Positions 44,775 to 58,757 of a stretch of DNA of 64,000 nt are shown here, one piece after another. Position 1 is the stretch's first letter, and the number at the start of each line of letters is the position of its first letter. The notes under the pieces were generated by a model that saw only the letters and a list, made by a program, of their open reading frames with translations, was not told the origin of the DNA and did no database searches. Source of the stretch: Candidatus Anstonella stagnisolia (lineage in GTDB: Archaea > Micrarchaeota > Micrarchaeia > Anstonellales > Anstonellaceae); NCBI GenBank assembly GCA_902384585.1, contig CABMCJ010000002.1:156179-220178 (forward strand). The letters are read 5' to 3'. Made by a program: the position numbers and the translations under genes.

Positions 44775-45611
44775 TTAGGGGTAGCCGGGATTTTGATAAA
44801 GAAGCTGTATTTCGCCATCCGAAAGCACGCGGTGGTATATCTGGACTTCGTCTATGCTTCCATCAACGTAAAAACTGTTTATAACGCTTGGAATTTGAAG
44901 CACAGTTCCCTGGAATGAGTCTACATTGGCATTTGTAGTGGAACCTATCAGGGCGCCATTAACATACAGGCTGGCGGTCTTTGTAGCCTTATTGAAAGTT
45001 CCAGTAAGCATATACCATTGGCCGGCAACAAGCGTTGCACCGGGAGTTTCTGCATAAGTTCCTGAATTTTTAGCTACAGTAAAATATACGGTGCTTGTCC
45101 AACGTTTTGTCCAGAGTGCCCATCCGGCAACCTGCGGTACGTCACTTGAGAAGTAAGTTCCAGAAGAGATGGGTATGCTGTAGATGCTTGTAAAACTATC
45201 GAATTTGACAAACATATTTACGGTTAGGTCGGTCGCATCAGAAATTATCGCACTGGGGCTATTTACGCTGCAATATTGGGACGTGCTAGCGGTGTGCAAC
45301 GCATTTCCGCTTTTTCCGCTTGCCCAAGTGCCGGAGAAAGTGCAGGTATACCCGCCTCTGTTATCTGCGGCTGATGCACCGCTTCCCTCGTCAAATTTAA
45401 AGTATGCAACAAGCCCCTGCAAAAGATCCGGGTATTGCATTGCGGCTATTTTGAATTTCGTGTCTGTCTGGGATTTCTTTGTGTCTTTTGTTGTGCCAGT
45501 TGGCCAGACAAGAAGCGCGACGCAAATAAGGGCTATTCCTAGGACTACGCTCATAAGAACTAAATATTCCGTAGCTCCTTGCGCTTTTTTAGTTTGTGTT
45601 ATGCCCGCCAC
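44775..45611 (-). CDS. Archaeal type IV pilin-like protein with LamG/ConA-like domain (paralog 2)
   Basis: MAGITQTKKAQGATEYLVLMSVVLGIALICVALLV is a class-III-type signal. The conserved blocks QYPDLLQGLVAYFKFDEGSG and GSIDEVQIYHRVLSDGEIQLLYQNPGYP are shared with 15516-16319. Confidence 0.65.
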   Translation of the reverse strand: MAGITQTKKAQGATEYLVLMSVVLGIALICVALLVWPTGTTKDTKKSQTDTKFKIAAMQYPDLLQGLVAYFKFDEGSGASAADNRGGYTCTFSGTWASGKSGNALHTASTSQYCSVNSPSAIISDATDLTVNMFVKFDSFTSIYSIPISSGTYFSSDVPQVAGWALWTKRWTSTVYFTVAKNSGTYAETPGATLVAGQWYMLTGTFNKATKTASLYVNGALIGSTTNANVDSFQGTVLQIPSVINSFYVDGSIDEVQIYHRVLSDGEIQLLYQNPGYP

Positions 45612-45967: not shown

Positions 45968-47224
45968 ATGCCTTTCATAACTTCTGTTTTTGCAAGAGAG
46001 ATACTGGATTCGCGGGGATATCCTACTGTGGAGGCGGAAGTTCGCGCGGACGGCTTTTTTGGGAGGGCTGCTGCACCTTCGGGTGCGTCTACAGGAACCC
46101 TTGAAGCGCTTGAACTGCGCGATGGCGGGCAGAGATATGGGGGAAAGGGCGTGCTGCGGGCTGTTTCCAATGTGAATGGGCAGATTGCGCAGGCGCTTGA
46201 GGGAACTGAGGTATTGGAGCAAAACGTAGTGGATGGAAAGCTTGTTTCGCTTGATGGGACTTCCAATAAGGGAAGGTTGGGCGCAAATGCGACTACTGCG
46301 GTCTCGCTTGCGTGCGCGCAGTGCGCTGCAAACTCGAAAGGAATTGGACTTTATGCGCTTCTTGGAGGGAATGTTCTTCCGCTTCCGTTTATGAATGTAC
46401 TGAATGGGGGGAAGCACGCGGGAAACGGGGTTGCTGTGCAGGAATTCATGATTGTGCCGCACGGGTTTTCAAAATTTTCGGAAGGCTTGCAGGCTGGAAG
46501 TGAAATATATCACACACTTGGGAAGAAAATTGCGATTAAGTATGGGAAAGCAGCAACCGGAGTAGGGGACGAGGGGGGATATGCGCCTGCTGTGAAGAAA
46601 ACTGAGGATGCGCTGGAATTGCTTGTTGCATCCATAGAAGATTGCGGGTATGGAAAGAAAGTTTCCCTTGCAATTGATGCTGCCGCAAGCTCTTTTTACG
46701 AGGGGAAAAAATATTCGGTTGATGGGAAAAAACTTGATGCAGGAAAATTGCTGGAGAAATACGTTTCGCTCACTAAAAAATATCCCATTGTGAGCATTGA
46801 GGACCCGTTTTTTGAGCAGGATTTTGAGAATTTTGCGCACCTGAGGAAAAAGCTTGCAGGAAAAGTGCAAATTGTGTCTGATGATTTGACTGTTACGAAC
46901 ACGAAAATAATTTCAAGGGCGATAAAGGAGAAATGCATGAGCGCACTTCTTCTTAAGGTGAACCAGATTGGGACGCTTTCGGAAGCGCTTGAGGCTGCTG
47001 CGATGTGCAGGAAAGCTGGGTTGGGCGTAATGGTGTCGCACCGCTCTGGGGAAACAGAAGATACTGCGATTGCGGACATTGCGGTCGGGATAGGTTGCGG
47101 GCAGATAAAAACAGGCTCGCTTGCAAGAAGCGAGAGAGTTGCGAAGTACAATAGGCTCCTGAGAATAGAGGAGGAGCTGGGAAATAAGGGCAAATTCGCA
47201 GGCACAAGCGGCTTGAAATTCTAG
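45968..47224 (+). CDS. eno: Enolase
   Basis: ILDSRGYPTVE, GASTGTLEA, metal-binding SHRSGETED, and the LLLKVNQIGTLSEA signature. Confidence 0.9.
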   Translation: MPFITSVFAREILDSRGYPTVEAEVRADGFFGRAAAPSGASTGTLEALELRDGGQRYGGKGVLRAVSNVNGQIAQALEGTEVLEQNVVDGKLVSLDGTSNKGRLGANATTAVSLACAQCAANSKGIGLYALLGGNVLPLPFMNVLNGGKHAGNGVAVQEFMIVPHGFSKFSEGLQAGSEIYHTLGKKIAIKYGKAATGVGDEGGYAPAVKKTEDALELLVASIEDCGYGKKVSLAIDAAASSFYEGKKYSVDGKKLDAGKLLEKYVSLTKKYPIVSIEDPFFEQDFENFAHLRKKLAGKVQIVSDDLTVTNTKIISRAIKEKCMSALLLKVNQIGTLSEALEAAAMCRKAGLGVMVSHRSGETEDTAIADIAVGIGCGQIKTGSLARSERVAKYNRLLRIEEELGNKGKFAGTSGLKF

Positions 47225-47358
47225 TGCCCCACCCGGGTGCGAAAAGCAGGGAAAACGCCAATTCTTTAAATACTTTTGTATTCATATATGTATATTAGTT
47301 TTGCACGCTCTTTAGATGTCAAATTTTAATGCTAAACTAAATACCAAAGGTGAGAAAT

Positions 47359-49011
47359 ATGGGAAAAAACTTGGAAGGACAACAAATTTTAGTGCTGCCT
47401 GAGGGCTCAAACAGAGTTATAGGCAGGGACGCGCAGCGCTCAAACATCGCAGTCGCGTACGCGGTTGCAAACATTGTGAGGACGACATTGGGACCAAAGG
47501 GAATGGACAAAATGCTTGTGTCCGAGATGGGCGACATTGTAATTACAAACGACGGGGCAACGATATTGGAAGAGATGAACGTTGAGCACCCGGCTGCAAA
47601 AATACTTGTAGAGGTTGCAAAGACGCAGGACAAGGAAGTCGGGGACGGCACAACGACCGCGGCAATGCTTGCGGGAATGCTCCTTAAGAAAGCCGGAGAC
47701 TTGCTTGACCAGGACATACACGCATCCACGATTGTGAACGGGTATTCGATGGCGGCAAAGAAGACCGAAGAGGTGCTTGCAAAAATAAGCAGGCCGATTT
47801 CAATTGAGGATAAGGCAACGCTCCTGAAAATCGCGGCTATTTCAATGGGCTCAAAATCCGTTGGAGTGGGAACTGCAAAAGACACACTCGCAGGGATGGT
47901 GGTGTCCGCAGTAACGCAGGTTGCCGAGAAAAAAGACGGCAAATACGTTGTGGACCACGAACTCATCAAGATAGAGAAGAAGGCGGGCGGGGAAATCGCA
48001 GACACCACGCTCATAAAGGGCGTGCTTGTGGACAAGGAAATTGTGCACCAGAACATGCCAAAGGCAATAAAGAACGCAAAGCTTGCGCTTCTTGACTGCG
48101 CGCTTGAGATTGAGAAGACTGAAGTGGATGCAAAAATTGAGATTACATCCCCAGACCAGATGCAGTCCTTCCTGGAGCAGGAAGAGAAAATGCTCAAGGA
48201 CATGGTGGAGAAGATTTCAAAGACAGGCGCGAACGTCGTATTCTGCCAGAAGGGCATTGATGATGTTGCGCAGCACTTCCTTGCGAAAAAGGGAATTTCT
48301 GCAGTTCGCAGGGTAAAGAAATCCGACATGGAGAAGCTCTCAAGGGCGACTGGCGCGAAAATCGCAACAACTCTTGATGACCTTGCCCCAACAGACCTTG
48401 GAAGCGCAGGGGACGTTGTGGAGCGCTCTATTGCGGGCGAAAAGATGGTATTTGTTGAAAACTGCAAGGACCCAAAGAGCGTCACAATATTTGTGCGCGC
48501 ATCAACCGACCACGTTGTGTCCGAAGGGGAACGCGCAATAGTGGACGCGATTGGGGCAGTATCCTCTGCAATAGAGGACGGCAGGTACGTAACCGGCGGC
48601 GGCTCTGCGGAAATGGAAATCGCAGCGCAGCTCACCAAGTACGCAACCGAAATAGGCGGCCGCGAGCAGCTTGCAATAATAGCATTTGCAGAGGCGCTTG
48701 AAATCGTGCCGCGCACGCTTGCCGAGAACACGGGCATGGATGCAATAGACACGCTTGTGTCGCTTCGCTCAAAGCACAAGAAAGAGGACGGCGCGCACTT
48801 TGGCGTGGACGTGTACAAGGCAGAAGTTGCAGACATGGACAAGCTCGGCGTTATTGAGCCTTCGAAAGTGAAAAAGCAGGCAATCGCATCAGGCTTTGAG
48901 GCTGCAAAGATGCTTCTAAGGATTGATGACATGATTGCGTCCAAGGGCAAGTCGGGCGGAATGCCACCGGGCGGGCCTGGAGGCATGGGCGGAATGGGCG
49001 GGGACTACTAG
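47359..49011 (+). CDS. ths: Thermosome subunit (group II chaperonin)
   Basis: GQQILVLPEG...TLGPKGMDKMLV...GDGTTTA ATP-binding motif, plus a C-terminal GGMPPGGPGGMGGMGGDY tail. The start is trimmed to MGKNLEG. Confidence 0.9.
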   Translation: MGKNLEGQQILVLPEGSNRVIGRDAQRSNIAVAYAVANIVRTTLGPKGMDKMLVSEMGDIVITNDGATILEEMNVEHPAAKILVEVAKTQDKEVGDGTTTAAMLAGMLLKKAGDLLDQDIHASTIVNGYSMAAKKTEEVLAKISRPISIEDKATLLKIAAISMGSKSVGVGTAKDTLAGMVVSAVTQVAEKKDGKYVVDHELIKIEKKAGGEIADTTLIKGVLVDKEIVHQNMPKAIKNAKLALLDCALEIEKTEVDAKIEITSPDQMQSFLEQEEKMLKDMVEKISKTGANVVFCQKGIDDVAQHFLAKKGISAVRRVKKSDMEKLSRATGAKIATTLDDLAPTDLGSAGDVVERSIAGEKMVFVENCKDPKSVTIFVRASTDHVVSEGERAIVDAIGAVSSAIEDGRYVTGGGSAEMEIAAQLTKYATEIGGREQLAIIAFAEALEIVPRTLAENTGMDAIDTLVSLRSKHKKEDGAHFGVDVYKAEVADMDKLGVIEPSKVKKQAIASGFEAAKMLLRIDDMIASKGKSGGMPPGGPGGMGGMGGDY

Positions 49012-49014
49012 AGT

Positions 49015-49055
49015 CTCCTTCTTCTTTTTTCTTTATTTATTTTTCCCATTTTATT
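49015..49055. terminator. T-rich intergenic terminator region between convergent ths and 49051-49938
   Basis: tctccttcttcttttttctttatttatttttcccattttattcttcttttg lies immediately after the thermosome stop. Confidence 0.35.
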
Positions 49056-49938
49056 CTTCTTTTGAAATGCAAACTGCCTTCCAGCCTGGGCTGGACTGTA
49101 CTGGGGCGGCAGCAACCGAAAACATGTTATGCTCCGAGTGTAAAATGCCATTTTCCCCATCATTCGCAAGTATTGTGTTCCTTCTTAGGGATAGCGCTTT
49201 TAGCTGGTAATTGTCAAGGCGGAACGCGGATACCAATGTTACTGAATCTTCCATAGGCATTAGAGGCTTGGTCCCTACATCTCCACACACGCGGTGTTCA
49301 ACGTTTATTCCATTTGGCAGGGGCAGCATTGGAAATGGTTTCTGCAAATGCACCAATTCTTCCGTCCTCTCCTGCCAGATTATTTTGCGTTTGGAGCACA
49401 TGCTTATGCTGGGCCCGAATTCTCTCAGCACCACGCGATCCCAGTCAGTAAGAAGCCGTTTCGGTGAAGAAAGCAGTTGGGAAGATGAGAAAAAATAACC
49501 GGTGTTTGAAGCTTCCATGTAGTTTTGACTTGTTTCCATTATGCTCAGGCAGCACGCCATCCATACATCTTCGGCAAGCACGCGCATAAGTGAGTTTATG
49601 CCATCCAGCGCCTGCTCGGATGTTATTGAATACCTGTATCTGAACGCATCCTCTGAAAAAAGAACGATAGAGGGGGTTGGGATACCGGTTTTGCCGGCAT
49701 TGTCAAGGACTTTTCTTGAGATGCCAAGCAGGATGATTTTTGCATCTTCAAGGCCCAATTTGTTTGCCCTCGGGCAGTAGACGTCCAGGAGGGGCGTTTG
49801 CCTGCCAGATGGCGTTTGCATGGCTGCCATCGGAAGTTGCGCTGGCTTGAAGAATGGATAGAACATGCAGTATTTATGGTAAAAAGAGCTTATAAATGTT
49901 ATATTTACTCCAATTTTTTCTCCCAAAATGCCCTGCAC
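49051..49938 (-). CDS. Hypothetical protein (Trp/Cys-containing), downstream partner of the radical SAM gene
   Basis: 295-aa ORF overlapping the radical SAM gene's 3' end by ~34 nt on the same strand. No motif recognised. Confidence 0.4.
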   Translation of the reverse strand: MQGILGEKIGVNITFISSFYHKYCMFYPFFKPAQLPMAAMQTPSGRQTPLLDVYCPRANKLGLEDAKIILLGISRKVLDNAGKTGIPTPSIVLFSEDAFRYRYSITSEQALDGINSLMRVLAEDVWMACCLSIMETSQNYMEASNTGYFFSSSQLLSSPKRLLTDWDRVVLREFGPSISMCSKRKIIWQERTEELVHLQKPFPMLPLPNGINVEHRVCGDVGTKPLMPMEDSVTLVSAFRLDNYQLKALSLRRNTILANDGENGILHSEHNMFSVAAAPVQSSPGWKAVCISKEE

Positions 49939-50960
49939 AGACAGCCGCCAAGTTCCTCGCTCTTCTTTCTCATTTCACTGAAATATCCATTGTGGAAAAT
50001 GTGGAACAAATCTTTTACATTGCCTTGTTCATCCAGTATTGAATCCTCTTCCCTTGGAGGGATTGCAATGCCGGGCGTGAGCATTGAACCTTTTACAATG
50101 AGTTCTGTGGATTGCCTTTTTTCGCAGTATTCACCGCCGCTTGCGAAAATTTTGCTTAGGGTTTTGTGCTGCGCCGCTGTGAGCAGCAAGTCGTACCTGC
50201 CTTGCGCCCTGCCTGCAAGTATTATGGGCTCCACATATGCATAAATGTCCAGTTCCTTCGCAATTGGAAGCACATTTTCAACTACGTCTTTGTAGTTTTC
50301 CCTTGAAACCATCACTTGAATCCCAACGCGCTCTTTTCCGAGCGCTTCAAGCAGTCTCACAAGCGCAAGCGGAACGCTTTTCCCCCCTATTTTTCCATAG
50401 GGGTAGTTTTTTGGTTTAACTCTAACCATTTCTGCTGCCTTTCTCTGGAAGGAATGCCAGAATTTTACGTAAAAATGGAGTTGGGGGAAAGTGCCGGCAA
50501 CATTGCACACCAGTTCATCTGGAGAAATGCCGAATACGCTTTTGCTTAGTTTATTGCTGTGGAAAATTGAGCCGTCTGTGAAAACAACGGCGGGTATTTT
50601 ACAGTCTGCCTGGTATTGCATTATTTTCCAAAAGTCTCTTAGCAGTGTAAGCTCGCCCTCACCGGGCCAGTATGTAACCTGCGCGCCCATGCCATTTACC
50701 TGCTGGATTACGCTTATTGCCTGCGCTGCGCTTAGTACGCCATCTGCACTGCCAAAAGTGTAGCAAATCGAACAATTGAAATCACATCTGCCATCGCCAA
50801 AGAGAAAAGTAAGGCGATTTAATGAGCCTTCCTTGAGCTTCTCTGCTTCAAGAATTTTTCCTGCCTCAAAGAGCTTGTCTATTTCACGGTTTCTTGCCGC
50901 GAGGATTGTTTTTTCTAATTGGGAGGCGATAAGCACTGGGAAGAGCTTTTTCGTTATCAT
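49905..50960 (-). CDS. Radical SAM enzyme of unknown specificity
   Basis: CDFNCSIC is the CxxxCxxC motif. It is followed by the glycine-rich SAM-binding motif WPGEGELTLL (GGEP-like). The start is trimmed to MITKKLFPVL, approximate to +/-2 nt. No SPASM-type Cys cluster is obvious. Confidence 0.7.
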   Translation of the reverse strand: MITKKLFPVLIASQLEKTILAARNREIDKLFEAGKILEAEKLKEGSLNRLTFLFGDGRCDFNCSICYTFGSADGVLSAAQAISVIQQVNGMGAQVTYWPGEGELTLLRDFWKIMQYQADCKIPAVVFTDGSIFHSNKLSKSVFGISPDELVCNVAGTFPQLHFYVKFWHSFQRKAAEMVRVKPKNYPYGKIGGKSVPLALVRLLEALGKERVGIQVMVSRENYKDVVENVLPIAKELDIYAYVEPIILAGRAQGRYDLLLTAAQHKTLSKIFASGGEYCEKRQSTELIVKGSMLTPGIAIPPREEDSILDEQGNVKDLFHIFHNGYFSEMRKKSEELGGCLCRAFWEKKLE

Positions 50961-51068
50961 GTATGGCACCTTAGTGCCACTATTGGAGCATTTTAGGTAT
51001 AATAAAGAAAGTATGTATTTTTGCCTCAAAACAAAAATATAATAAAGATTTATTTGGAAATAGAGCAT

Positions 51069-52031
51069 ATGGAGATAGAATTAGATCAAAAAGACAAGAG
51101 GATAGTGCAGGAGCTTGAGGGGAACGCGCGGCAAAGCTCAATGCAAATAGCAAGGAAAGTCGGGCTGAGCAAGGATGCTGTGAATTACCGCATAAAAAAC
51201 ATGGAGCAAAGGGGCATAATACGAGGATATTATGCGCTCTTGAACTTGCCAAACCTTGGGTATTGCACTTACAAGCTCATGGCGTCTTTCCAGAATGCGA
51301 CCTCAAAAACAGAGGAGGAAATTGTATCTTACCTTAAGGGGCGCGGGCACGTTGGATGGGTGGTGAGCTGCGACGGGGTTTACAACCTGATGGTGATATG
51401 CTGGCTTAGGAACGAATCCGCTTTCCAGCGCTTTCTCACTGACTTTCTCAAGAGGTATGCGAAATACCTGCGCACGCGGGAAACCCTTGTGATTAGCGAA
51501 AACCATGCGTGCCGCAAGGCATACCTTTTTGGGGAGGAGCAGGATGGGTCCCCTGATACTCATTATGGCGGGGAGGCTGCAAGCCTTGCGGATGAGACGG
51601 ATTGCAGGATAATTTCCATTCTTGCGGACAATGCGCGCATTTCCCTCAAAGAGATAGCTGGGAAGGTTGGGTTGAGTCCGGAAGCTGTTGCATACCGGAT
51701 GAAGCAGCTTGAGAAAAAGAACGTGGTGCAGGCCTATTTGCCTTCCGTGAATACGCGGCTTCTTGGGTATCAGTACTATAATGTCCTTTTTCGGCTCAAG
51801 CAGTTTGACAACCTTGGGAAAATGTTCCTGCATTTCAAGCGCCATCCGAACATAATATATTTCGTGCGCTATATCGGTGGGTTTGACGTTGGGATTGATT
51901 TGGAAGTGCGGAGCACGGACGAGTTGCGGGCAATTCTTACGAACATAAGGGATACGTTTAGTGCGGACATTGAGAGCTATACGTCCGTGCTCATTTACCA
52001 GGAGCACAAGCTTTCGTATTTCCCGAAGTAG
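51069..52031 (+). CDS. Tandem Lrp/AsnC-family regulator (two HTH + RAM modules in one polypeptide)
   Basis: Module 1 is LDQKDKRIVQELEGNARQSSMQIARKVGLSKDAVNYRIKNMEQRGIIRGYYALLN. Module 2 is ETDCRIISILADNARISLKEIAGKVGLSPEAVAYRMKQLEKKNVVQAY. Each is followed by a RAM-like beta-alpha-beta region. Confidence 0.75.
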   Translation: MEIELDQKDKRIVQELEGNARQSSMQIARKVGLSKDAVNYRIKNMEQRGIIRGYYALLNLPNLGYCTYKLMASFQNATSKTEEEIVSYLKGRGHVGWVVSCDGVYNLMVICWLRNESAFQRFLTDFLKRYAKYLRTRETLVISENHACRKAYLFGEEQDGSPDTHYGGEAASLADETDCRIISILADNARISLKEIAGKVGLSPEAVAYRMKQLEKKNVVQAYLPSVNTRLLGYQYYNVLFRLKQFDNLGKMFLHFKRHPNIIYFVRYIGGFDVGIDLEVRSTDELRAILTNIRDTFSADIESYTSVLIYQEHKLSYFPK

Positions 52032-53304: not shown

Positions 53305-56300
53305 TTTAAACCGGACTGGGTATGGTGCATTAGTAGAGGCGGGCTGAAAGCCTCGCTTGCGCTTAGCTCTTACACCCCCTCCCTATCAAGGTCGTCTAAT
53401 ACGACCGCACATTCCATCTAGTTTTGAGATCCGCTTCGACCTTAGATGCTTTCAGGTCTTATCGGATAGCGCGTGGCTGCCCAGCGATGCTTTGCACAAC
53501 TGGTACACTAGAGGCGCCGATTCCAAGTTCCTCTCGTACTCATGGAAGCTTGCTCTCAAATGGAAACACTCCTAGGAGATACTACCGAACTGTCTCGCGA
53601 CGTTCTGAACCCAGCTCATGTAGGTCTTTAATGGATGAACAACCCAACCTTTGGCGGCTCCTGCACCGCCAGGATGACCTAAGCCGACAGCGATGTACCA
53701 AACCGCGGGGTCGATATGTACTACGAACGCCGATGACATTTTTGATAGGATTCTTTAGGAAACTTTCCTGAAGACCGATAACTAAAATCTCTGCCACCGG
53801 CGAAAGTATGGGTACTCTCGCCCGCGACGAGCCTGTTACCCCCGGGGTAGCTTGTCTGACAGCTTGGACCCTCATCAAAAAGGTACCAAGGTTCGTTAAG
53901 CCCGACTTTCGTCTCTGCATTCCACGCTTTTAGGAATACAGTCAGTCCAGCATTTGTCTTTAACCCTTACCGGCGCATTTCTGACGCGCCTAAGCTGAAC
54001 ATTGGGCACCCTTGTTTCCTTATCGAGGGCGTACCGCCCCAGCCAAACTATCCACCTGACGCTGTCCCAATTAAGGTAAGCAATACAAAAACTGCTGAAT
54101 GGTGTTACAATTTCGCCTATTTGCACCCCGAGAGGTGCAACATGACGGCTCCCATTTACGCTCCGCAGCAGTCCTCGTATTACAACATCAGGCTATAGTA
54201 AAGCTCCACGGGGTCTTCGTTTCCCCCTAGAAGTCCTCTGCATACTCACAGAGTAGTAGGTTCACCAGGTCCCAGCTAGGGACAGTGGGAAGCTCGTTAT
54301 GCCATTCATGCAAGCCACCAATTAAGCGGCGAGGTATTACGCTACCTTAAGAGGGTCAGAGTTACCCCCGCTCTTTGCTGGCGCTTATTCCCATTGAAAT
54401 GGGCGTTCACGTACCAGTAGTGAGCAGGCATCGCCCGCAATACAAATCGTTTCCGATTAGCTGCGAGCTGTGTTTTTGATAAACAGTCGACCTCCCCTAG
54501 TCACTGCGACCTGCAGTTCTTTTAAACCGCAGGCATAGCTTCTTCCGAAGTTACGCTACTATTTTGCCGAGTTCCCTTAGCTGAGTTACCCTGTCACGCC
54601 TTGGCTTGTTATGCCAGCAGCACCTGTAATAGTTCTAGGTACGATTGTGCGAAATCGGATTTGTTTTCTTTTCATGGGCTCCGGGAATTGGCTGAACCTT
54701 TCAGCCTTCCCGCTATTATGCTGCTTCTCCTCACAATGAGTCTCCACAGCATTGCGACGGTTAACGAGGGTCTCCCCACGTCAGCCTATCCCAAAGCGTC
54801 AAAAACAAACCTTGTGTTGCCACGTCTATTCGCACAGGAGCGGAATTTTAACCGCTTTCCCTTTTGGCCGGTTGGAATTACCATCGGCCTTAGGATCGCC
54901 TTACTCTTGGCTGAAGAACATTGCCAAGAAACCCGTGTGCTATGCGGCGTCCAGGATTCTTGCCTGGATATGCTGTTACTAATACCAAGATATTCATAAC
55001 TGGCCGGTCCACAGGACGTCACCGCCCTGCTTCTAGCCAACCAGTTCGCCCCCCTACCAAACCCTTCTTTACGAAGGATCTCGGTGGTTTCGGTACAAAG
55101 CTTAGCCCCGATCATCTTCGGAATCCGTGATCTAGACTGGTCCGCTATTACGCGTTGTTTAAAGGATGGCTGCTTCTAAGCCTACCTTCCAGCTGTTTTA
55201 GACCAGAGATGCCTTGTAGATTCGCACTTAGCTTTGATTTAGGGACCTTAACCACTGTTCCGGCCTTTCCCGTAATGACCCACTAGCTTACCCAGTGGAA
55301 TCCGACTGCCGACTTCTGCGATGAACATAGATTCGGAGTTTGACAACCAGGTGATCCCTTTCGGAACCGCTCCCAGTAATCAGTGCTCTACCCTATGCTC
55401 CATCTCCATCGACGCTGTCCTGAGGGACATTTCGAGGGGAACCCGCTATTGCCAAGTTCGATTGGACTATCACCCCTATGCGTAGGTCACCCGAACAGAA
55501 TATACTAGCATCGGTTGCGGGCTTCCACCAGCCGTCAGGCCGGCTTCACCCTGCCCACGCATAGATCACATTGGCTTCAGGTCTGAGGAGTGTGACTGCT
55601 CGCATTTTCACACGAAGTGCCTCCCTTGCGGTGCGCACAATCGCTTTCGCTTCGGCTTTCGCCTCGCCACACAACTTCAACTCCTTGGCTCTTGCTTCGA
55701 GAAGAACGATACGATGCCGGTATTCCTCCTTCCACCGCATTCTCGCGAATGCAGCGTTGGGGAGTAGTCATTCCTTTCACACCGTATCAAATTGTCACCA
55801 TTCAGTTTGAGGCTCTTTGAACTCCCCTTCCGGGGTCCTTTTCAGCGTTCGCTCGCGCTACTAATTCGCTATCGGTCTCAATATCGTATTTAGAGTTGGC
55901 AATTGATACTGCCGCTTTCATGCCCCATACTCGAGGAGCACTACTCTTTTTGCTTCAGTCCGCACAATTTTGCCTACGAGGCTGTAACTCCCTTTGGCGC
56001 TGCTTTCCAGCAGCTTCGGCTCCTTGTACGGATATCCGCCCCACATCCGCCGCGCATTGCTGCGCGGTTGTTCAGGACGCTCTCCTTGGTTTTCAGTCGC
56101 CTTACTCACCAAATGCCTATTGGTCTCTTTTCTCTCCCGCTACTAGAATCTTTTAATTCACGGGGCTTTTGCGCACTACTGCGCGTCGCACTACCTTCGG
56201 ATCACAGGCTGCCTGCGCCTACCCGAAGCGTTTCGCCGCTTGCCGCGGTGCCTAAATCTTTTGAGCCCAGCCATCCACTGAATGGCGTAACATACATACC

Positions 56301-56600
56301 CTTATCCGTAAGTTTGCAAGTCGCTCTTCGTCCGCATGAGATTCTTCCAAAACTGGCGAGGTACTGCATGCATCGGCATGCGTTTCGCGTCATCATTTTG
56401 GGGAATGTTGCCCTCCCTTTCGGAAGGCGTCCGTTCTTGAAAAAATCAAGAGCCGGTGACTGAATTTCTTCGGTCAGTAACACTAAGAAGTGTTAATTTT
56501 TCAAAAACCCTTTCCTTCCATTGTCGCCACGAAGGCGGTGGAATACATTAAGGGTTAATCAATTCATCGCAAGCAGCATAGATGCCACCGCTGATGTCGG
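53305..56600 (-). rRNA. rrl: 23S (large subunit) rRNA gene; boundaries approximate
   Basis: The reverse complement contains universally conserved LSU segments, e.g. GAGCTGGGTTCAGAACGTCGTGAGACAGTTCGG (revcomp of 53583-53620 region), GTACGAGAGGAAC and GAAAGCATCTAAG near the 3' end. The region is ORF-poor and GC-even. The 5' end is placed just downstream of a TTTATAAA promoter box on the minus strand. Confidence 0.85.
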
Positions 56601-56627
56601 CAATCATTCCCGCCGAAGGTTCGTGGC

Positions 56628-56641
56628 AGTTATTAAAGCGT
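56628..56641 (-). promoter_or_regulatory. Putative rRNA promoter TATA box (TTTATAAA on minus strand)
   Basis: Plus-strand gatgtttataaagg reads CCTTTATAAACATC on the minus strand, the classical archaeal rRNA TATA. It sits immediately upstream of the rRNA 5' leader. Confidence 0.4.
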
Positions 56642-56709
56642 AAGATGTTTATAAAGGTATCGGGAGATTTTTGGGGCAGAAAGTCCTTTTCTGAAAAACG
56701 TTGGGATGT

Positions 56710-57084
56710 TTATTTTTTAGAGCTTACATTAATGTTTTGCAATCGATTCAAAACTTCCATTTTACTTGGGTATATTTCGCCATTATGCAAGGCATCTGAA
56801 GCCTCTTTCTTATTTATTACGTCCATAATGCTTAGATCTAGTCGGATGAGATTTTGAAGAATTTCTGATTTGGAAGAAATTTTGTACATTCGTGCTCTGC
56901 TGATTTTTCGTGTTATTGTTATGATTCCGAAATCTTCCAGATTTTTTAGTATTTCATCTGCTTGCTTCCAGCTGACTCCGCAGTATCTGGATACATCTGC
57001 CTTGGAAAAATCTACTTCTGGTTCTAGTACTAAATATTCCAGTACACGTATTGTTGCTGCGTTAGGTATAAACGTGGATATCAT
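56710..57084 (-). CDS. Winged-helix transcription regulator, low-GC gene
   Basis: IRVLEYLVLEPEVDFSKADVSRYCGVSWKQADEILKNLEDFGII is a TrmB/ArsR-like wHTH with a C-terminal helical region. Codon usage is AT-rich, unlike the surrounding genes. Confidence 0.5.
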   Translation of the reverse strand: MISTFIPNAATIRVLEYLVLEPEVDFSKADVSRYCGVSWKQADEILKNLEDFGIITITRKISRARMYKISSKSEILQNLIRLDLSIMDVINKKEASDALHNGEIYPSKMEVLNRLQNINVSSKK

Positions 57085-57660
57085 GTTTATTTCTCCTTAA
57101 TGCCCGTAAAAATAAAAAAGGAAGTTGTGGGGAGGTTCAAGTTTAGCACGTGAGGTTATACATAGTTAAAGTTTATAAATATATGTGCTGTTCTGACAGA
57201 TATATTTATATGGTTTGTTGATATTATTATTTCGCACAGGACAGGCTAAAGGAAGTTGTTGGGGGGTGGGTTCAAGACAGCATACTTCCTAGCGACTTGT
57301 GTAGGAGGAAAAAATGGAATTGAGAAAAATAATGGACGGAGATTGCGTGTCCATACTTCGCCGTTTGTACCTAAAAGGCGCAGTAAGGCAAGGACGAGGA
57401 GTCTGCCTGAGTGACCTATTACGCCCTGTATACGGACCAAAATGGGGACAATATAGGAATACTGTTGAAATGCTCTGGTGAATGGCACAATAGAAGCTGA
57501 AGGCAGTAGGTTTAGTCTTTGGGTATAAAACAAATGGAGTGCAACTCTACATAATAAACCCGAATATGATAGTAGAAATTCGTTCGATGATCGGCGTATA
57601 AAGTGCGCCGATTTTTTCTTTTTTCGATAATCAGAGCAGGTAAAGATATGAGGTGATGAA

Positions 57661-57894
57661 GTGGTAAATTTCAGAAAAACAAGTTTGGACATAATAGATC
57701 TCGGAAAAATGATAATTGTTGCTGTACTCATGGTAGTAGTAGTTTATACTGTCATTTCGAATTTATTGAGCCAAGTTGTGGGCCAATTTCCAGGACAGAT
57801 AGCAGGGGGAATCATTAGTCTGGGGTCGCTTTATTACTATGCTGTAAAAACAAAAATTAAACAAGAGATTGATGACTGGTTAAAAAAGCAGTAA
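57661..57894 (+). CDS. Small two-TM membrane protein (AT-rich island)
   Basis: 77-aa ORF. Hydrophobic stretches are MIIVAVLMVVVVYTVISNLL and IAGGIISLGSLYYYAV. A hairpin plus T-run (atcggcg...cgccgatttttt) precedes it at ~57590-57625. Confidence 0.35.
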   Translation: MVNFRKTSLDIIDLGKMIIVAVLMVVVVYTVISNLLSQVVGQFPGQIAGGIISLGSLYYYAVKTKIKQEIDDWLKKQ

Positions 57895-57907
57895 GCACAA
57901 TGCGACT

Positions 57908-58264
57908 TCATATCGCCATTTCCATCTCAATCTTCTTCGCCTTCGTGATTGGCTTTAGCCGAACCCGCCCGTTGTGCTTGGTTTCCTCAAAGGTGAGAAG
58001 CCCGAATTCCGAAAGGAGTTTCGCATCCACGGTGATGCTTTTGAAGTCGCGCTTGAGGAGCTTGGAGAGCGCGTAAAGGGATTTTGGCTTCTGGTTTTTA
58101 ACGGTGCTAAGAAGGCGCATGCGCTGCGCCGTTAGCACCTTGCGGAAATCCTCTATTGAATTGAAGTATATTATGTAATCCTCTTTTTGGGGAATGCTGT
58201 GTTCCACTGCGTAGATTGTCTCTTTGCGCACGCTTTCCCAGTCTTTTATTATGATTTTTGCCAT
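57908..58264 (-). CDS. Putative HTH partner (antitoxin-like) of a two-gene cassette
   Basis: Start trimmed to MAKIIIKDW. It is a basic ~118-aa protein (KSLYALSKLLKRDFKSITVDAKLL). Its start lies 9 nt downstream of the stop of 58274-58573. Confidence 0.4.
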   Translation of the reverse strand: MAKIIIKDWESVRKETIYAVEHSIPQKEDYIIYFNSIEDFRKVLTAQRMRLLSTVKNQKPKSLYALSKLLKRDFKSITVDAKLLSEFGLLTFEETKHNGRVRLKPITKAKKIEMEMAI

Positions 58265-58273
58265 CCAAACCAC

Positions 58274-58573
58274 CTATTGCTTCAGCCCTATTTTTTTCTC
58301 ATATTCGGATTTTAGCTCGTCAAATTTTGCAAATGCCTGCTTCCAATCATAATCAACTTCATATTTTCTTTCCCCTATGTGCACGTGCGGCTGCCCGTGG
58401 GAATTTTCCACTGCGAACAGGGTTTCGTAAGCCCCGCTTTCTTCCACATAGCGCAGGTAACGGAACGTGTACATCACGCCATCCTTGTACCTCGTGTCGT
58501 CAAGCTCAATTACTTGCACCACTACCCTGTCCTTATTGGGCTGCTCAAATTTGAAGTCCCTGATTGTTTGCAT
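58274..58573 (-). CDS. Putative toxin-like protein (TumE/DUF6516-like pattern) of a two-gene cassette
   Basis: Start trimmed to MQTIRDFKFEQ. ...YTFRYLRYVEESGAYETLFAVENSHGQPHVHIGERKYEV is a conserved H-x-H-containing core reminiscent of the DUF6516/TumE family. The assignment is tentative. Confidence 0.35.
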   Translation of the reverse strand: MQTIRDFKFEQPNKDRVVVQVIELDDTRYKDGVMYTFRYLRYVEESGAYETLFAVENSHGQPHVHIGERKYEVDYDWKQAFAKFDELKSEYEKKIGLKQ

Positions 58574-58603
58574 GCGAAACGCCTTCGCGCACGCCTGCAA
58601 CAG

Positions 58604-58626
58604 TATATGGTATGCGATACCATATA
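58604..58626. promoter_or_regulatory. Perfect 10-bp inverted repeat TATATGGTAT-gcg-ATACCATATA upstream of the TA-like cassette (candidate autoregulatory operator)
   Basis: The perfect palindrome is seen directly at 58604-58626. It is ~30 nt upstream of the cassette start (58573), in the divergent intergenic region shared with pirin. Confidence 0.45.
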
Positions 58627-58757
58627 TATAATGGTTGCGGCACTCGCGCAAGGAAAAGGCGGAAAACGCAATAAAAACATTTGGAAGGTAACTTTCCTGT
58701 GGGTTTGCACGCCGCTTATTCATATACGCTTAAATAATACCTAAGAGAAATATGTAT

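Follow-up and report, generated by a model that had tools for sequence, protein, structure and literature searches.

A divergent pair of genes for a single-chain double-Lrp regulator and an uncharacterised radical SAM enzyme, conserved among Micrarchaeota-like archaea

On a contig assigned to Candidatus Anstonella stagnisolia (CABMCJ010000002.1, assembly GCA_902384585.1), a gene for a radical S-adenosylmethionine (SAM) enzyme is followed by an open reading frame (ORF) of 295 codons and faces, head to head, a regulator gene with two Lrp/AsnC modules in one chain. The arrangement raises the question of which of these genes belong together and what kind of chemistry they might serve. We analysed a stretch of 64,000 nucleotides around them (positions 156,179 to 220,178 of the contig, hereafter the window, to which all coordinates refer). 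An earlier reading of the letters alone, the sequence-only reading, had proposed a regulator facing an uncharacterised radical SAM operon with an overlapping partner gene. We hold with moderate confidence that the conserved unit is instead a two-gene archaeal module, in which the double-Lrp regulator controls its own gene and gates that of a divergently transcribed, uncharacterised SPASM/twitch-related radical SAM enzyme; the pair is probably a small regulated pathway. Its components are as follows.

51069-52031, plus strand: single-chain double Lrp/AsnC regulator of 320 aa, identified by Pfam and Protein Data Bank (PDB) alignments
51069-51518, plus strand: module 1 of the regulator, approximately residues 1-150
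51588-52028, plus strand: module 2 of the regulator, approximately residues 174-320
50961-51068, no strand: divergent intergenic control region of 108 nt
49905-50960 (stop codon included), minus strand: radical SAM enzyme of 351 aa, of an uncharacterised subfamily, identified by alignment, AlphaFold 2 (AF2) modelling and Foldseek

The evidence that carries this reading is the recurrence of the pair. A search of 5.8 billion proteins returned 23 homologues of the radical SAM enzyme, approximately 17 of them archaeal (51-61% identity) and four bacterial (36-44%); the close ones belong to Micrarchaeota-like archaea and a few bacteria, and none has Pfam domains on record. A wider profile search of 1.84 billion representatives gave 33 proteins at E<1e-30, and a scan of GTDB genomes with strict derived peptide patterns returned two loci. 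The upstream side of the gene was visible in eight archaeal loci (the window, L005, L007, L010, L012, L017, L018 and L019) and the downstream side in nine (with L013 added), and three bacterial loci were compared. All eight have an orthologous double-Lrp gene running divergently from the radical SAM gene, the regulators being 55-61% identical to the window protein where measured. The two genes are 96-108 nt apart in seven loci and, with the starts as called, 61 nt apart in L017; the remaining flanking genes change from locus to locus. The neighbourhood conservation that the sequence-only reading had wished to see checked therefore exists for the divergent pair, but does not extend to the 295-aa ORF, which is present in no related locus.

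The extent of the spacer depends on where the radical SAM gene starts. Both the mechanical ORF and the NCBI model begin at ATG 51068 and give 387 aa. In the family alignment of 21 sequences (the window protein and 20 homologues), all 20 homologues start at the position of M37 of that model (MITKKLFP...), and the DNA upstream of M37 aligns across species as non-coding promoter sequence; the real start is therefore ATG 50960, the one chosen by the sequence-only reading, and the protein has 351 aa. The NCBI model, whose start codon would abut that of the regulator gene, is on these alignments probably 36 codons too long. The regions of the protein discussed below are:

50763-50786, minus strand: codons of CDFNCSIC, C59-x3-C63-x2-C66, the radical SAM [4Fe-4S] motif, from the alignment
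50652-50669, minus strand: WPGEGE, the GGE-like motif for SAM binding, where strand beta2 ends, from the alignment and the AF2 model
49935-50126, minus strand: C-terminal region with conserved C279, C340 and C342, a candidate three-cysteine twitch-like auxiliary site, from the alignment and the AF2 model

The window protein is a genuine radical SAM enzyme from the SPASM/twitch-related region of the superfamily and belongs to no described family. The minus-strand ORF that ends at 49905 encodes both motifs, CDFNCSIC and WPGEGE, from which the gene had originally been recognised. Residues 59-67 read CDFNCSICY, with three cysteines that are invariant among the 21 aligned sequences and an aromatic residue, and TYWPGxGE (TYWPGEGE in the window) is invariant or nearly so, next to a strand modelled at residues 95-98; altogether there are 47 invariant columns, including those of the three cluster cysteines and of C279. 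The AF2 model computed with the family alignment has a mean predicted local distance difference test score (pLDDT) of 89.7 and a predicted template-modelling score (pTM) of 0.90, and shows an N-terminal extension of approximately 48 residues (two helices), six beta/alpha units forming a partial TIM barrel, and then a beta-hairpin (286-295) and helices. Foldseek found 67 matches in the PDB at E<=1e-3; each of the best 50, the ones listed, is a radical SAM enzyme, and the leading ones are SuiB, CteB, GDGT-MAS, SkfB, viperin, BlsE, EpeE, anSME and MoaA (E 5e-9 to 2e-5, template-modelling scores of 0.45-0.57, with 0.5-0.57 for the top matches, 11-15% identity).

Sequence profiles place it far less readily, in keeping with the earlier impression that the enzyme had no obvious family. 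Pfam gave no match at E<=0.1, PF04055 included (its gathering threshold is not reached), and distant relatives taken from the family profile do pass PF04055, with 39-41 bits against a threshold of 29.5. The best NCBIfam scores were 16-20 bits over residues 58-139, to NirJ, AhbC, AhbD and the mycofactocin maturase, whose cut-offs are 265-650, and none of the radical SAM relatives reaches any family cut-off in that collection. Searched against PDB sequences, the radical SAM profile found no relative (best E 0.16, to Fab chains). The profile and structure searches proposed for both ORFs thus set the radical SAM protein near SPASM/twitch structures; they yielded no curated subfamily for it, and no family match for the 295-aa ORF.

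The sequence-only reading had also denied the protein any SPASM or twitch cysteine cluster. For SPASM this stands: the seven-cysteine motif CX9-15GX4C...CX2CX5CX3C...C is absent, C279, C340 and C342 being the only conserved cysteines in the C-terminal 100 residues. For twitch it is doubtful. C279 never varies in the alignment, C340 and C342, part of a conserved CxCR, show conservation of at least 90%, and the secondary structure predicted by AF2 (strands 286-290 and 293-295, helix 325-337) puts C279 before the hairpin and C340xC342 after the helix, a twitch-like layout. Enzymes of the twitch subgroup (MoaA, BtrN, SkfB) have an abridged C-terminal domain, with a beta-hairpin and a helix and three or four cysteines that hold one auxiliary cluster.

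The family at large shows an unusual cluster motif. Most core members (homologues P0002-P0027) have CNFxCPxYC, that is CX3CX3C with an inserted proline; the canonical CX3CX2C is kept in the window protein, in P0008, P0012, P0014, P0028 and P0040, and in the outgroups. Two core members are fusions: in P0026 the radical SAM enzyme is joined to a UbiE-like methyltransferase, in P0027 to a transporter of the major facilitator superfamily (MFS).

The other half of the pair is a regulator. Pfam finds an AsnC-type helix-turn-helix (HTH) in two stretches of the chain with each of two models (HTH_AsnC-type, E 4e-28; HTH_24, E 3.5e-30), and the RAM domain (AsnC_trans_reg) in its first half, with a score of 32.5 (cut-off 25). 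Full-length solved regulators (LrpA, FL11/PH1519, Grp, AsnC and Mycobacterium tuberculosis LrpA) can be aligned both with residues 4-148 and with residues 174-314, as expected from the sequence-only reading, which had recognised two complete HTH-RAM modules in one chain. With the family profile, 25 solved Lrp regulators score 30-71 bits, and the NirD-like 4CH7 follows at rank 26 with 24.7. The protein is accordingly assigned to the Lrp/AsnC regulators; with this ranking, and with the NCBIfam cut-offs for AhbA and AhbB missed by far, we reject its reading as an enzyme. The two modules are only about 20% identical to each other, and HTH1 is more conserved than HTH2 (15 against 3 invariant columns, mean column identity of 0.79 against 0.66), an imbalance that fits the recognition of a non-palindromic site.

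The double-Lrp architecture is common in DPANN archaea. There are approximately 40 orthologues of the window regulator (49-61% identity), named 'Ptr1' by NCBI, and a second group of approximately 30 double-Lrp proteins (about 30% identity) labelled Nanoarchaeota or Pacearchaeota. No example of a characterised single-chain double-Lrp regulator was found, and literature searches on the organism together with radical SAM enzymes, on tandem Lrp regulators and on CX3CX3C yielded nothing relevant. Some orthologous double-Lrp genes that have no radical SAM neighbour stand among iron-related genes: the one at L016 (3200-4966) adjoins genes for a Haem_oxygenas_2-type iron enzyme, an FTR1 permease and VIT1, and another lies near a NifU/cysteine desulfurase cluster. 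These surroundings hint at a possible iron- or Fe-S-related regulon of the regulator.

Between the two genes lie the following elements.

51038-51048, plus strand: TATA-like box of the double-Lrp gene, its centre ~27 nt before ATG 51069
51022-51036, minus strand: conserved operator-like element TTTTGTTTTGAGGCA, between the TATA boxes, from cross-locus alignment
50998-51008, minus strand: TATA-like box for the radical SAM gene, TTTATTATA, ~40 nt upstream of ATG 50960
50964-50979, minus strand: hairpin TGGCAC-TAAG-GTGCCA in the radical SAM 5' leader, a perfect 6 bp stem that covers an SD-like (Shine-Dalgarno-like) AGGTG

The divergent region of ~110 nt with two TATA-like boxes, as first described, is confirmed at 108 nt, the boxes being the two copies of a direct repeat TATAATAAAGA (50998-51008 and 51038-51048). 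On the radical SAM side an aligned TATA, TTTCATATAA, is present in related loci; on the other side TATATAAATA occupies the same position in all orthologous double-Lrp loci, and the distance from TATA box to ATG suggests that the double-Lrp mRNA is leaderless. Upstream of the Lrp gene a block TATATAAATATTTYGWTTTRWGGCA is conserved across species. The upstream element of the regulator, GTTTTGAGGCA at 51022-51036, is kept even in genomes without the radical SAM gene, and in the window it is enclosed by an inverted repeat, TATTTTTG/CAAAAATA, at 51016-51023 and 51032-51039. An 11-mer, GWTTTRWGGCA, is found in seven of ten lineages (the window, L005, L010, L012, L019, L015 and L016), each time as a single copy per locus that lies upstream of the Lrp gene; L015 and L016 have no radical SAM gene. 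L007 and L018 carry a degenerate form, and L017 has none. The 15-mer has one exact site in the 64 kb, and its sites with three mismatches are at chance level (8 found, 6.1 expected). To judge from this distribution, the putative operator is tied to the regulator gene and, where the radical SAM gene is present, lies between both promoters. Nearer to the radical SAM gene, the AGGTG between its TATA box and ATG 50960 is buried in the hairpin, which is an insertion relative to other loci, found in the window lineage only, and might be a translational control element.

What the enzyme might do is best approached through its partners elsewhere. An orthologous UbiE-like methyltransferase gene lies directly downstream in five of the nine archaeal loci (L007, L010, L012, L013 and L017). 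It is missing from the other four: the window, which has the 295-aa ORF in its place, L005, which has a GT2-like gene, and L018 and L019, where the radical SAM gene has no downstream partner and so can stand alone. A methyltransferase query gave no tblastn match anywhere in the window. All three bacterial lineages show the order radical SAM, methyltransferase, MFS transporter, to which two add a lipoprotein-like unknown protein, a histidine-kinase-like GHKL protein and an ATP-grasp protein with a weak match to the C-terminus of L-amino-acid ligases. The partner methyltransferase is of a generic class I type and comes closest to UbiE/MenG, below the cut-off (92-103 bits, cut-off 158). Partnership with a methyltransferase and an MFS transporter, and fusion to either, suggest that the chemistry concerns a small molecule rather than the modification of a macromolecule. 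In the wider clade, the distant relatives P0039 and P0044 are fused to a class II ligase domain resembling EpmA/LysRS (150 bits to EpmA, below the cut-off), which hints at amino-acid, possibly lysine-related, chemistry there.

In the model that we prefer, the double-Lrp protein would fold as an intramolecular Lrp pseudo-dimer with two non-equivalent HTHs, and would bind the asymmetric element GTTTTGAGGCA between the TATA boxes of the 108-nt spacer, thereby controlling both its own apparently leaderless transcript and that of the radical SAM gene. The trigger would be a small ligand at the RAM domains, most likely an amino-acid-like one. In the enzyme, the [4Fe-4S] cluster held by C59, C63 and C66 would cleave SAM, so that a hydrogen atom could be abstracted from a small, probably anionic metabolite, and C279, C340 and C342 may hold an auxiliary cluster. 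In all bacterial relatives and approximately half of the archaeal ones, the product would be passed to the co-transcribed or fused UbiE-like methyltransferase, and in bacteria it would then be exported by the MFS transporter. The window would represent the methyltransferase-less form, like L005, L018 and L019, with the 295/271-aa ORF an unrelated lineage-specific gene. A bolder version, which we put forward tentatively as a possibility, is that the family and its frequent partners, the methyltransferase and MFS transporter, produce a novel methylated small molecule, which bacteria export; that horizontal transfer accounts for the presence of the family in both bacteria and genome-reduced Micrarchaeota, with an unprecedented CX3CX3C motif in most members; and that the archaeal switch of the pathway is a new class of single-chain, asymmetric Lrp protein reading a non-palindromic operator.

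Several observations weigh against the regulated two-gene module as we have drawn it. Regulator orthologues with 49-58% identity occur without a radical SAM neighbour and keep the same upstream motif, and the bacterial radical SAM homologues have no Lrp regulator. The window protein deviates from the family at nine of 95 highly conserved columns, more than any other archaeal member, and one of these changes affects a conserved tryptophan two residues before C59; the enzyme is intact yet somewhat divergent, and its activity may be altered. The auxiliary cluster that the C-terminal cysteines may hold has conservation and predicted topology as its basis.

Another possible explanation, the chief competitor and in our view a somewhat doubtful one, is that the adjacency is inherited synteny only, the double-Lrp protein being a general, autoregulated regulator of Micrarchaeota and the radical SAM gene escaping its control. 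The motif may then serve autoregulation or basal promoter function only. This would agree with the approximately 40 regulator orthologues against some 17 archaeal radical SAM homologues, and with those orthologues (49-58% identity) that stand beside a 147-aa unknown, a Haem_oxygenas_2/FTR1 pair or an 80-aa unknown, at least two of which keep the motif. Given such orthologues and their motif, the regulator is not dedicated to the radical SAM gene. Of the sequence-only reading, the pairing of regulator and enzyme and the lack of a known family are upheld, and the operon partner finds no support. Against synteny alone speaks that, at 52-60% protein identity, all other neighbours have been shuffled, and yet the radical SAM genes stay divergent at ~60-108 nt in eight of eight archaeal loci; moreover, with the element between two TATA boxes, its occupancy would affect both promoters.

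It is unlikely that the radical SAM enzyme, together with the methyltransferase at those loci that have one, is a housekeeping enzyme modifying RNA or protein. The pairing of a radical SAM enzyme with a class I methyltransferase does recall tRNA hypermodification pathways, DPANN genomes are small and retain many modification enzymes, and the structural neighbours include peptide-modifying enzymes. Against this stand the patchy phyletic distribution (approximately 23 close homologues in 5.8 billion proteins), the fusion to and shared operons with MFS transporters, the lack of any score above the cut-off of a tRNA- or rRNA-modification family, and a Pfam scan in which the RNA-binding domains PUA, THUMP and TRAM were not detected. 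A clean fall into such a family in an unconserved neighbourhood, which was named beforehand as the outcome that would overturn the idea of a regulated pathway, is hence not what was found: no family cut-off is reached and the pair is conserved.

49051-49938, minus strand: ORFan (an ORF matching only itself), of 295 aa from GTG 49938 or 271 aa from ATG 49866

This ORF had been thought to be co-translated with the radical SAM gene as a unit, and we regard it as quite unlikely that it is a genuine, translationally coupled partner in the window lineage. It lies on the same strand directly downstream, and its frame has the top codon-usage score of the six, albeit at -0.02 weaker than those of its neighbours (+0.13 and +0.15). 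The 34-nt overlap with the 3' end of the radical SAM gene holds if the mechanical start GTG 49938 is used, and only then; no Shine-Dalgarno sequence is found at a suitable distance upstream of that codon, and the public annotation starts at ATG 49866, leaving a gap of 38 nt. The gap contains a TATA-like TTTATAA centred 27 nt upstream of this ATG, the same geometry as at the regulator gene, so that the ORFan plausibly has a promoter of its own. Among 5.8 billion proteins it matched only itself; tblastn found it in no related locus, Pfam, NCBIfam, PHROGs and PADLOC gave no match, and the radical SAM gene does without any such partner in L018 and L019. Its single-sequence AF2 model is uninformative (pLDDT 31). 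The ORFan is probably a real lineage-specific gene, for which no functional tie to the radical SAM enzyme is seen. As candidates for its nature or that of the locus, a degenerate methyltransferase was rejected (hhalign probability 0.2% against a methyltransferase profile, no tblastn signal), as was a phage or defence origin, with nothing in PHROGs and only marginal generic viperin matches in PADLOC; for the radical SAM protein the PADLOC pVip score is 13.7 bits (E 0.008), and no viperin match is listed in NCBIfam.

A role of the enzyme as maturase of a ribosomally synthesised and post-translationally modified peptide (RiPP) is very unlikely, even if RiPP maturases (SuiB, CteB and SkfB) are its best structural matches. 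The N-terminal extension of ~48 residues is too short for a RiPP recognition element (RRE) domain, and none is present; no conserved short ORF adjoins the gene in bacterial loci, the archaeal spacers of ~100 nt have no room for a precursor ORF, and the seven-cysteine SPASM motif is missing. We therefore rejected this reading. An alternative-heme (Ahb/NirJ-like) tetrapyrrole module, with the double-Lrp protein as a fused siroheme-decarboxylase-like enzyme and the radical SAM protein as an AhbC/AhbD/NirJ-like one, can be dismissed as extremely unlikely and was likewise rejected: solved siroheme decarboxylases do belong to the AsnC family and that of Hydrogenobacter thermophilus is a fused two-module chain (PMC4835899), but the NCBIfam scores (AhbA 38.2 bits, AhbB 24.5, NirJ/AhbC/AhbD 16-20) fall far short of the cut-offs (140, 125 and 500-650), true regulators outrank the NirD-like 4CH7/4CZC by up to 46 bits, both HTHs strongly match the canonical AsnC type, and the NirJ-type matches cover the generic cluster-binding N-terminus only.

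The divergent pair of double-Lrp regulator and radical SAM enzyme can be compared with four kinds of known system. With SPASM/twitch enzymes (SuiB, CteB, SkfB, anSME, MoaA, BlsE) the window enzyme shares the CX3CX2C motif, the GGE-like motif, the partial TIM barrel and a C-terminal hairpin-plus-helix with conserved cysteines, viperin being a neighbour in the structural core only; unlike them, it shows 11-15% identity, reaches no family cut-off, has three C-terminal cysteines and no RRE, and most of its family have the CX3CX3C spacing. Each half of the window regulator is a full HTH and RAM module that aligns end to end with archaeal Lrp/AsnC regulators of the feast/famine regulatory protein (FFRP) family (LrpA, 1I1G; FL11/PH1519, 1RI7; Grp; Ptr1/Ptr2). 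A divergent promoter position is typical of autoregulated Lrp genes. Unlike those regulators, the window protein fuses two unequal modules in one chain of 320 aa, which implies an obligate asymmetric pseudo-dimer rather than a symmetric homodimer. Biosynthetic cassettes with a radical SAM enzyme, a class I methyltransferase and an MFS transporter are known, for example, from the blasticidin S cluster (BlsE, BlsL and BlsJ). The bacterial relatives share these three components and an ATP-grasp ligase-like gene, and BlsE is a structural neighbour; however, the other cluster genes are absent, the window has neither methyltransferase nor MFS transporter, and there is no significant sequence relation to BlsE. 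NirDL (4CZC/4CH7) resembles the regulator in its two-module AsnC-like architecture within one chain of ~320-340 aa (PMC4835899), and differs in scoring 24.7 bits with the family profile against 30-71 for regulators and in that the AhbA and AhbB cut-offs are not reached by the window protein.

If our reading is right, the pair would be compact and tractable by experiment: the family would be an unexplored branch of radical SAM enzymes that comes with genetic handles (a methyltransferase, a transporter and fusions to both) and, in most members, an odd one-residue insertion in the cluster motif, and the DPANN-wide family of single-chain tandem Lrp proteins could show how Lrp regulators recognise non-palindromic sites. 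For the window itself the value is corrective: the radical SAM gene is probably annotated publicly from the wrong start codon, what had been taken for its partner is an unrelated ORFan, and the partner that recurs elsewhere is missing here.

The wider setting is archaeal, as seen from an archaeal 23S ribosomal RNA (rRNA) gene at 53311-56302 on the minus strand and from the thermosome and enolase genes given below. The 23S rRNA gene stands alone, no 16S rRNA, 5S rRNA or transfer RNA gene having been detected across the 64 kb, and the rRNA genes are therefore unlinked. The thermosome and enolase genes have these positions.

47350-49011: thermosome gene
45968-47224: enolase gene

The host, Candidatus Anstonella stagnisolia, is a metagenome-assembled genome of the Micrarchaeota (DPANN) (PMC8561730), and the proteins discussed above have 100% identity to NCBI entries that bear this name. 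The G+C content of the window is approximately 50%, against 62.2% given for Ca. Anstonella stagnisolia LFW-35 (PMC8561730); the discrepancy lies with the published figure, with the binning of this contig of 236 kb or with the database label. A stretch of lower G+C content (~42%) at 56500-58750 adjoins the 23S rRNA gene and contains only small ORFs of 121-149 aa, among them an abutting pair (57908-58273 and 58274-58723), and may be a small mobile or toxin-antitoxin-like islet. Finally, a 278-aa ORF on the minus strand at 44775-45611 begins with QGATEYLVLMSVVLGIALI; judged by eye, this N-terminus resembles an archaeal class III (pilin-like) signal peptide, and the part after it may be a lectin-like domain.

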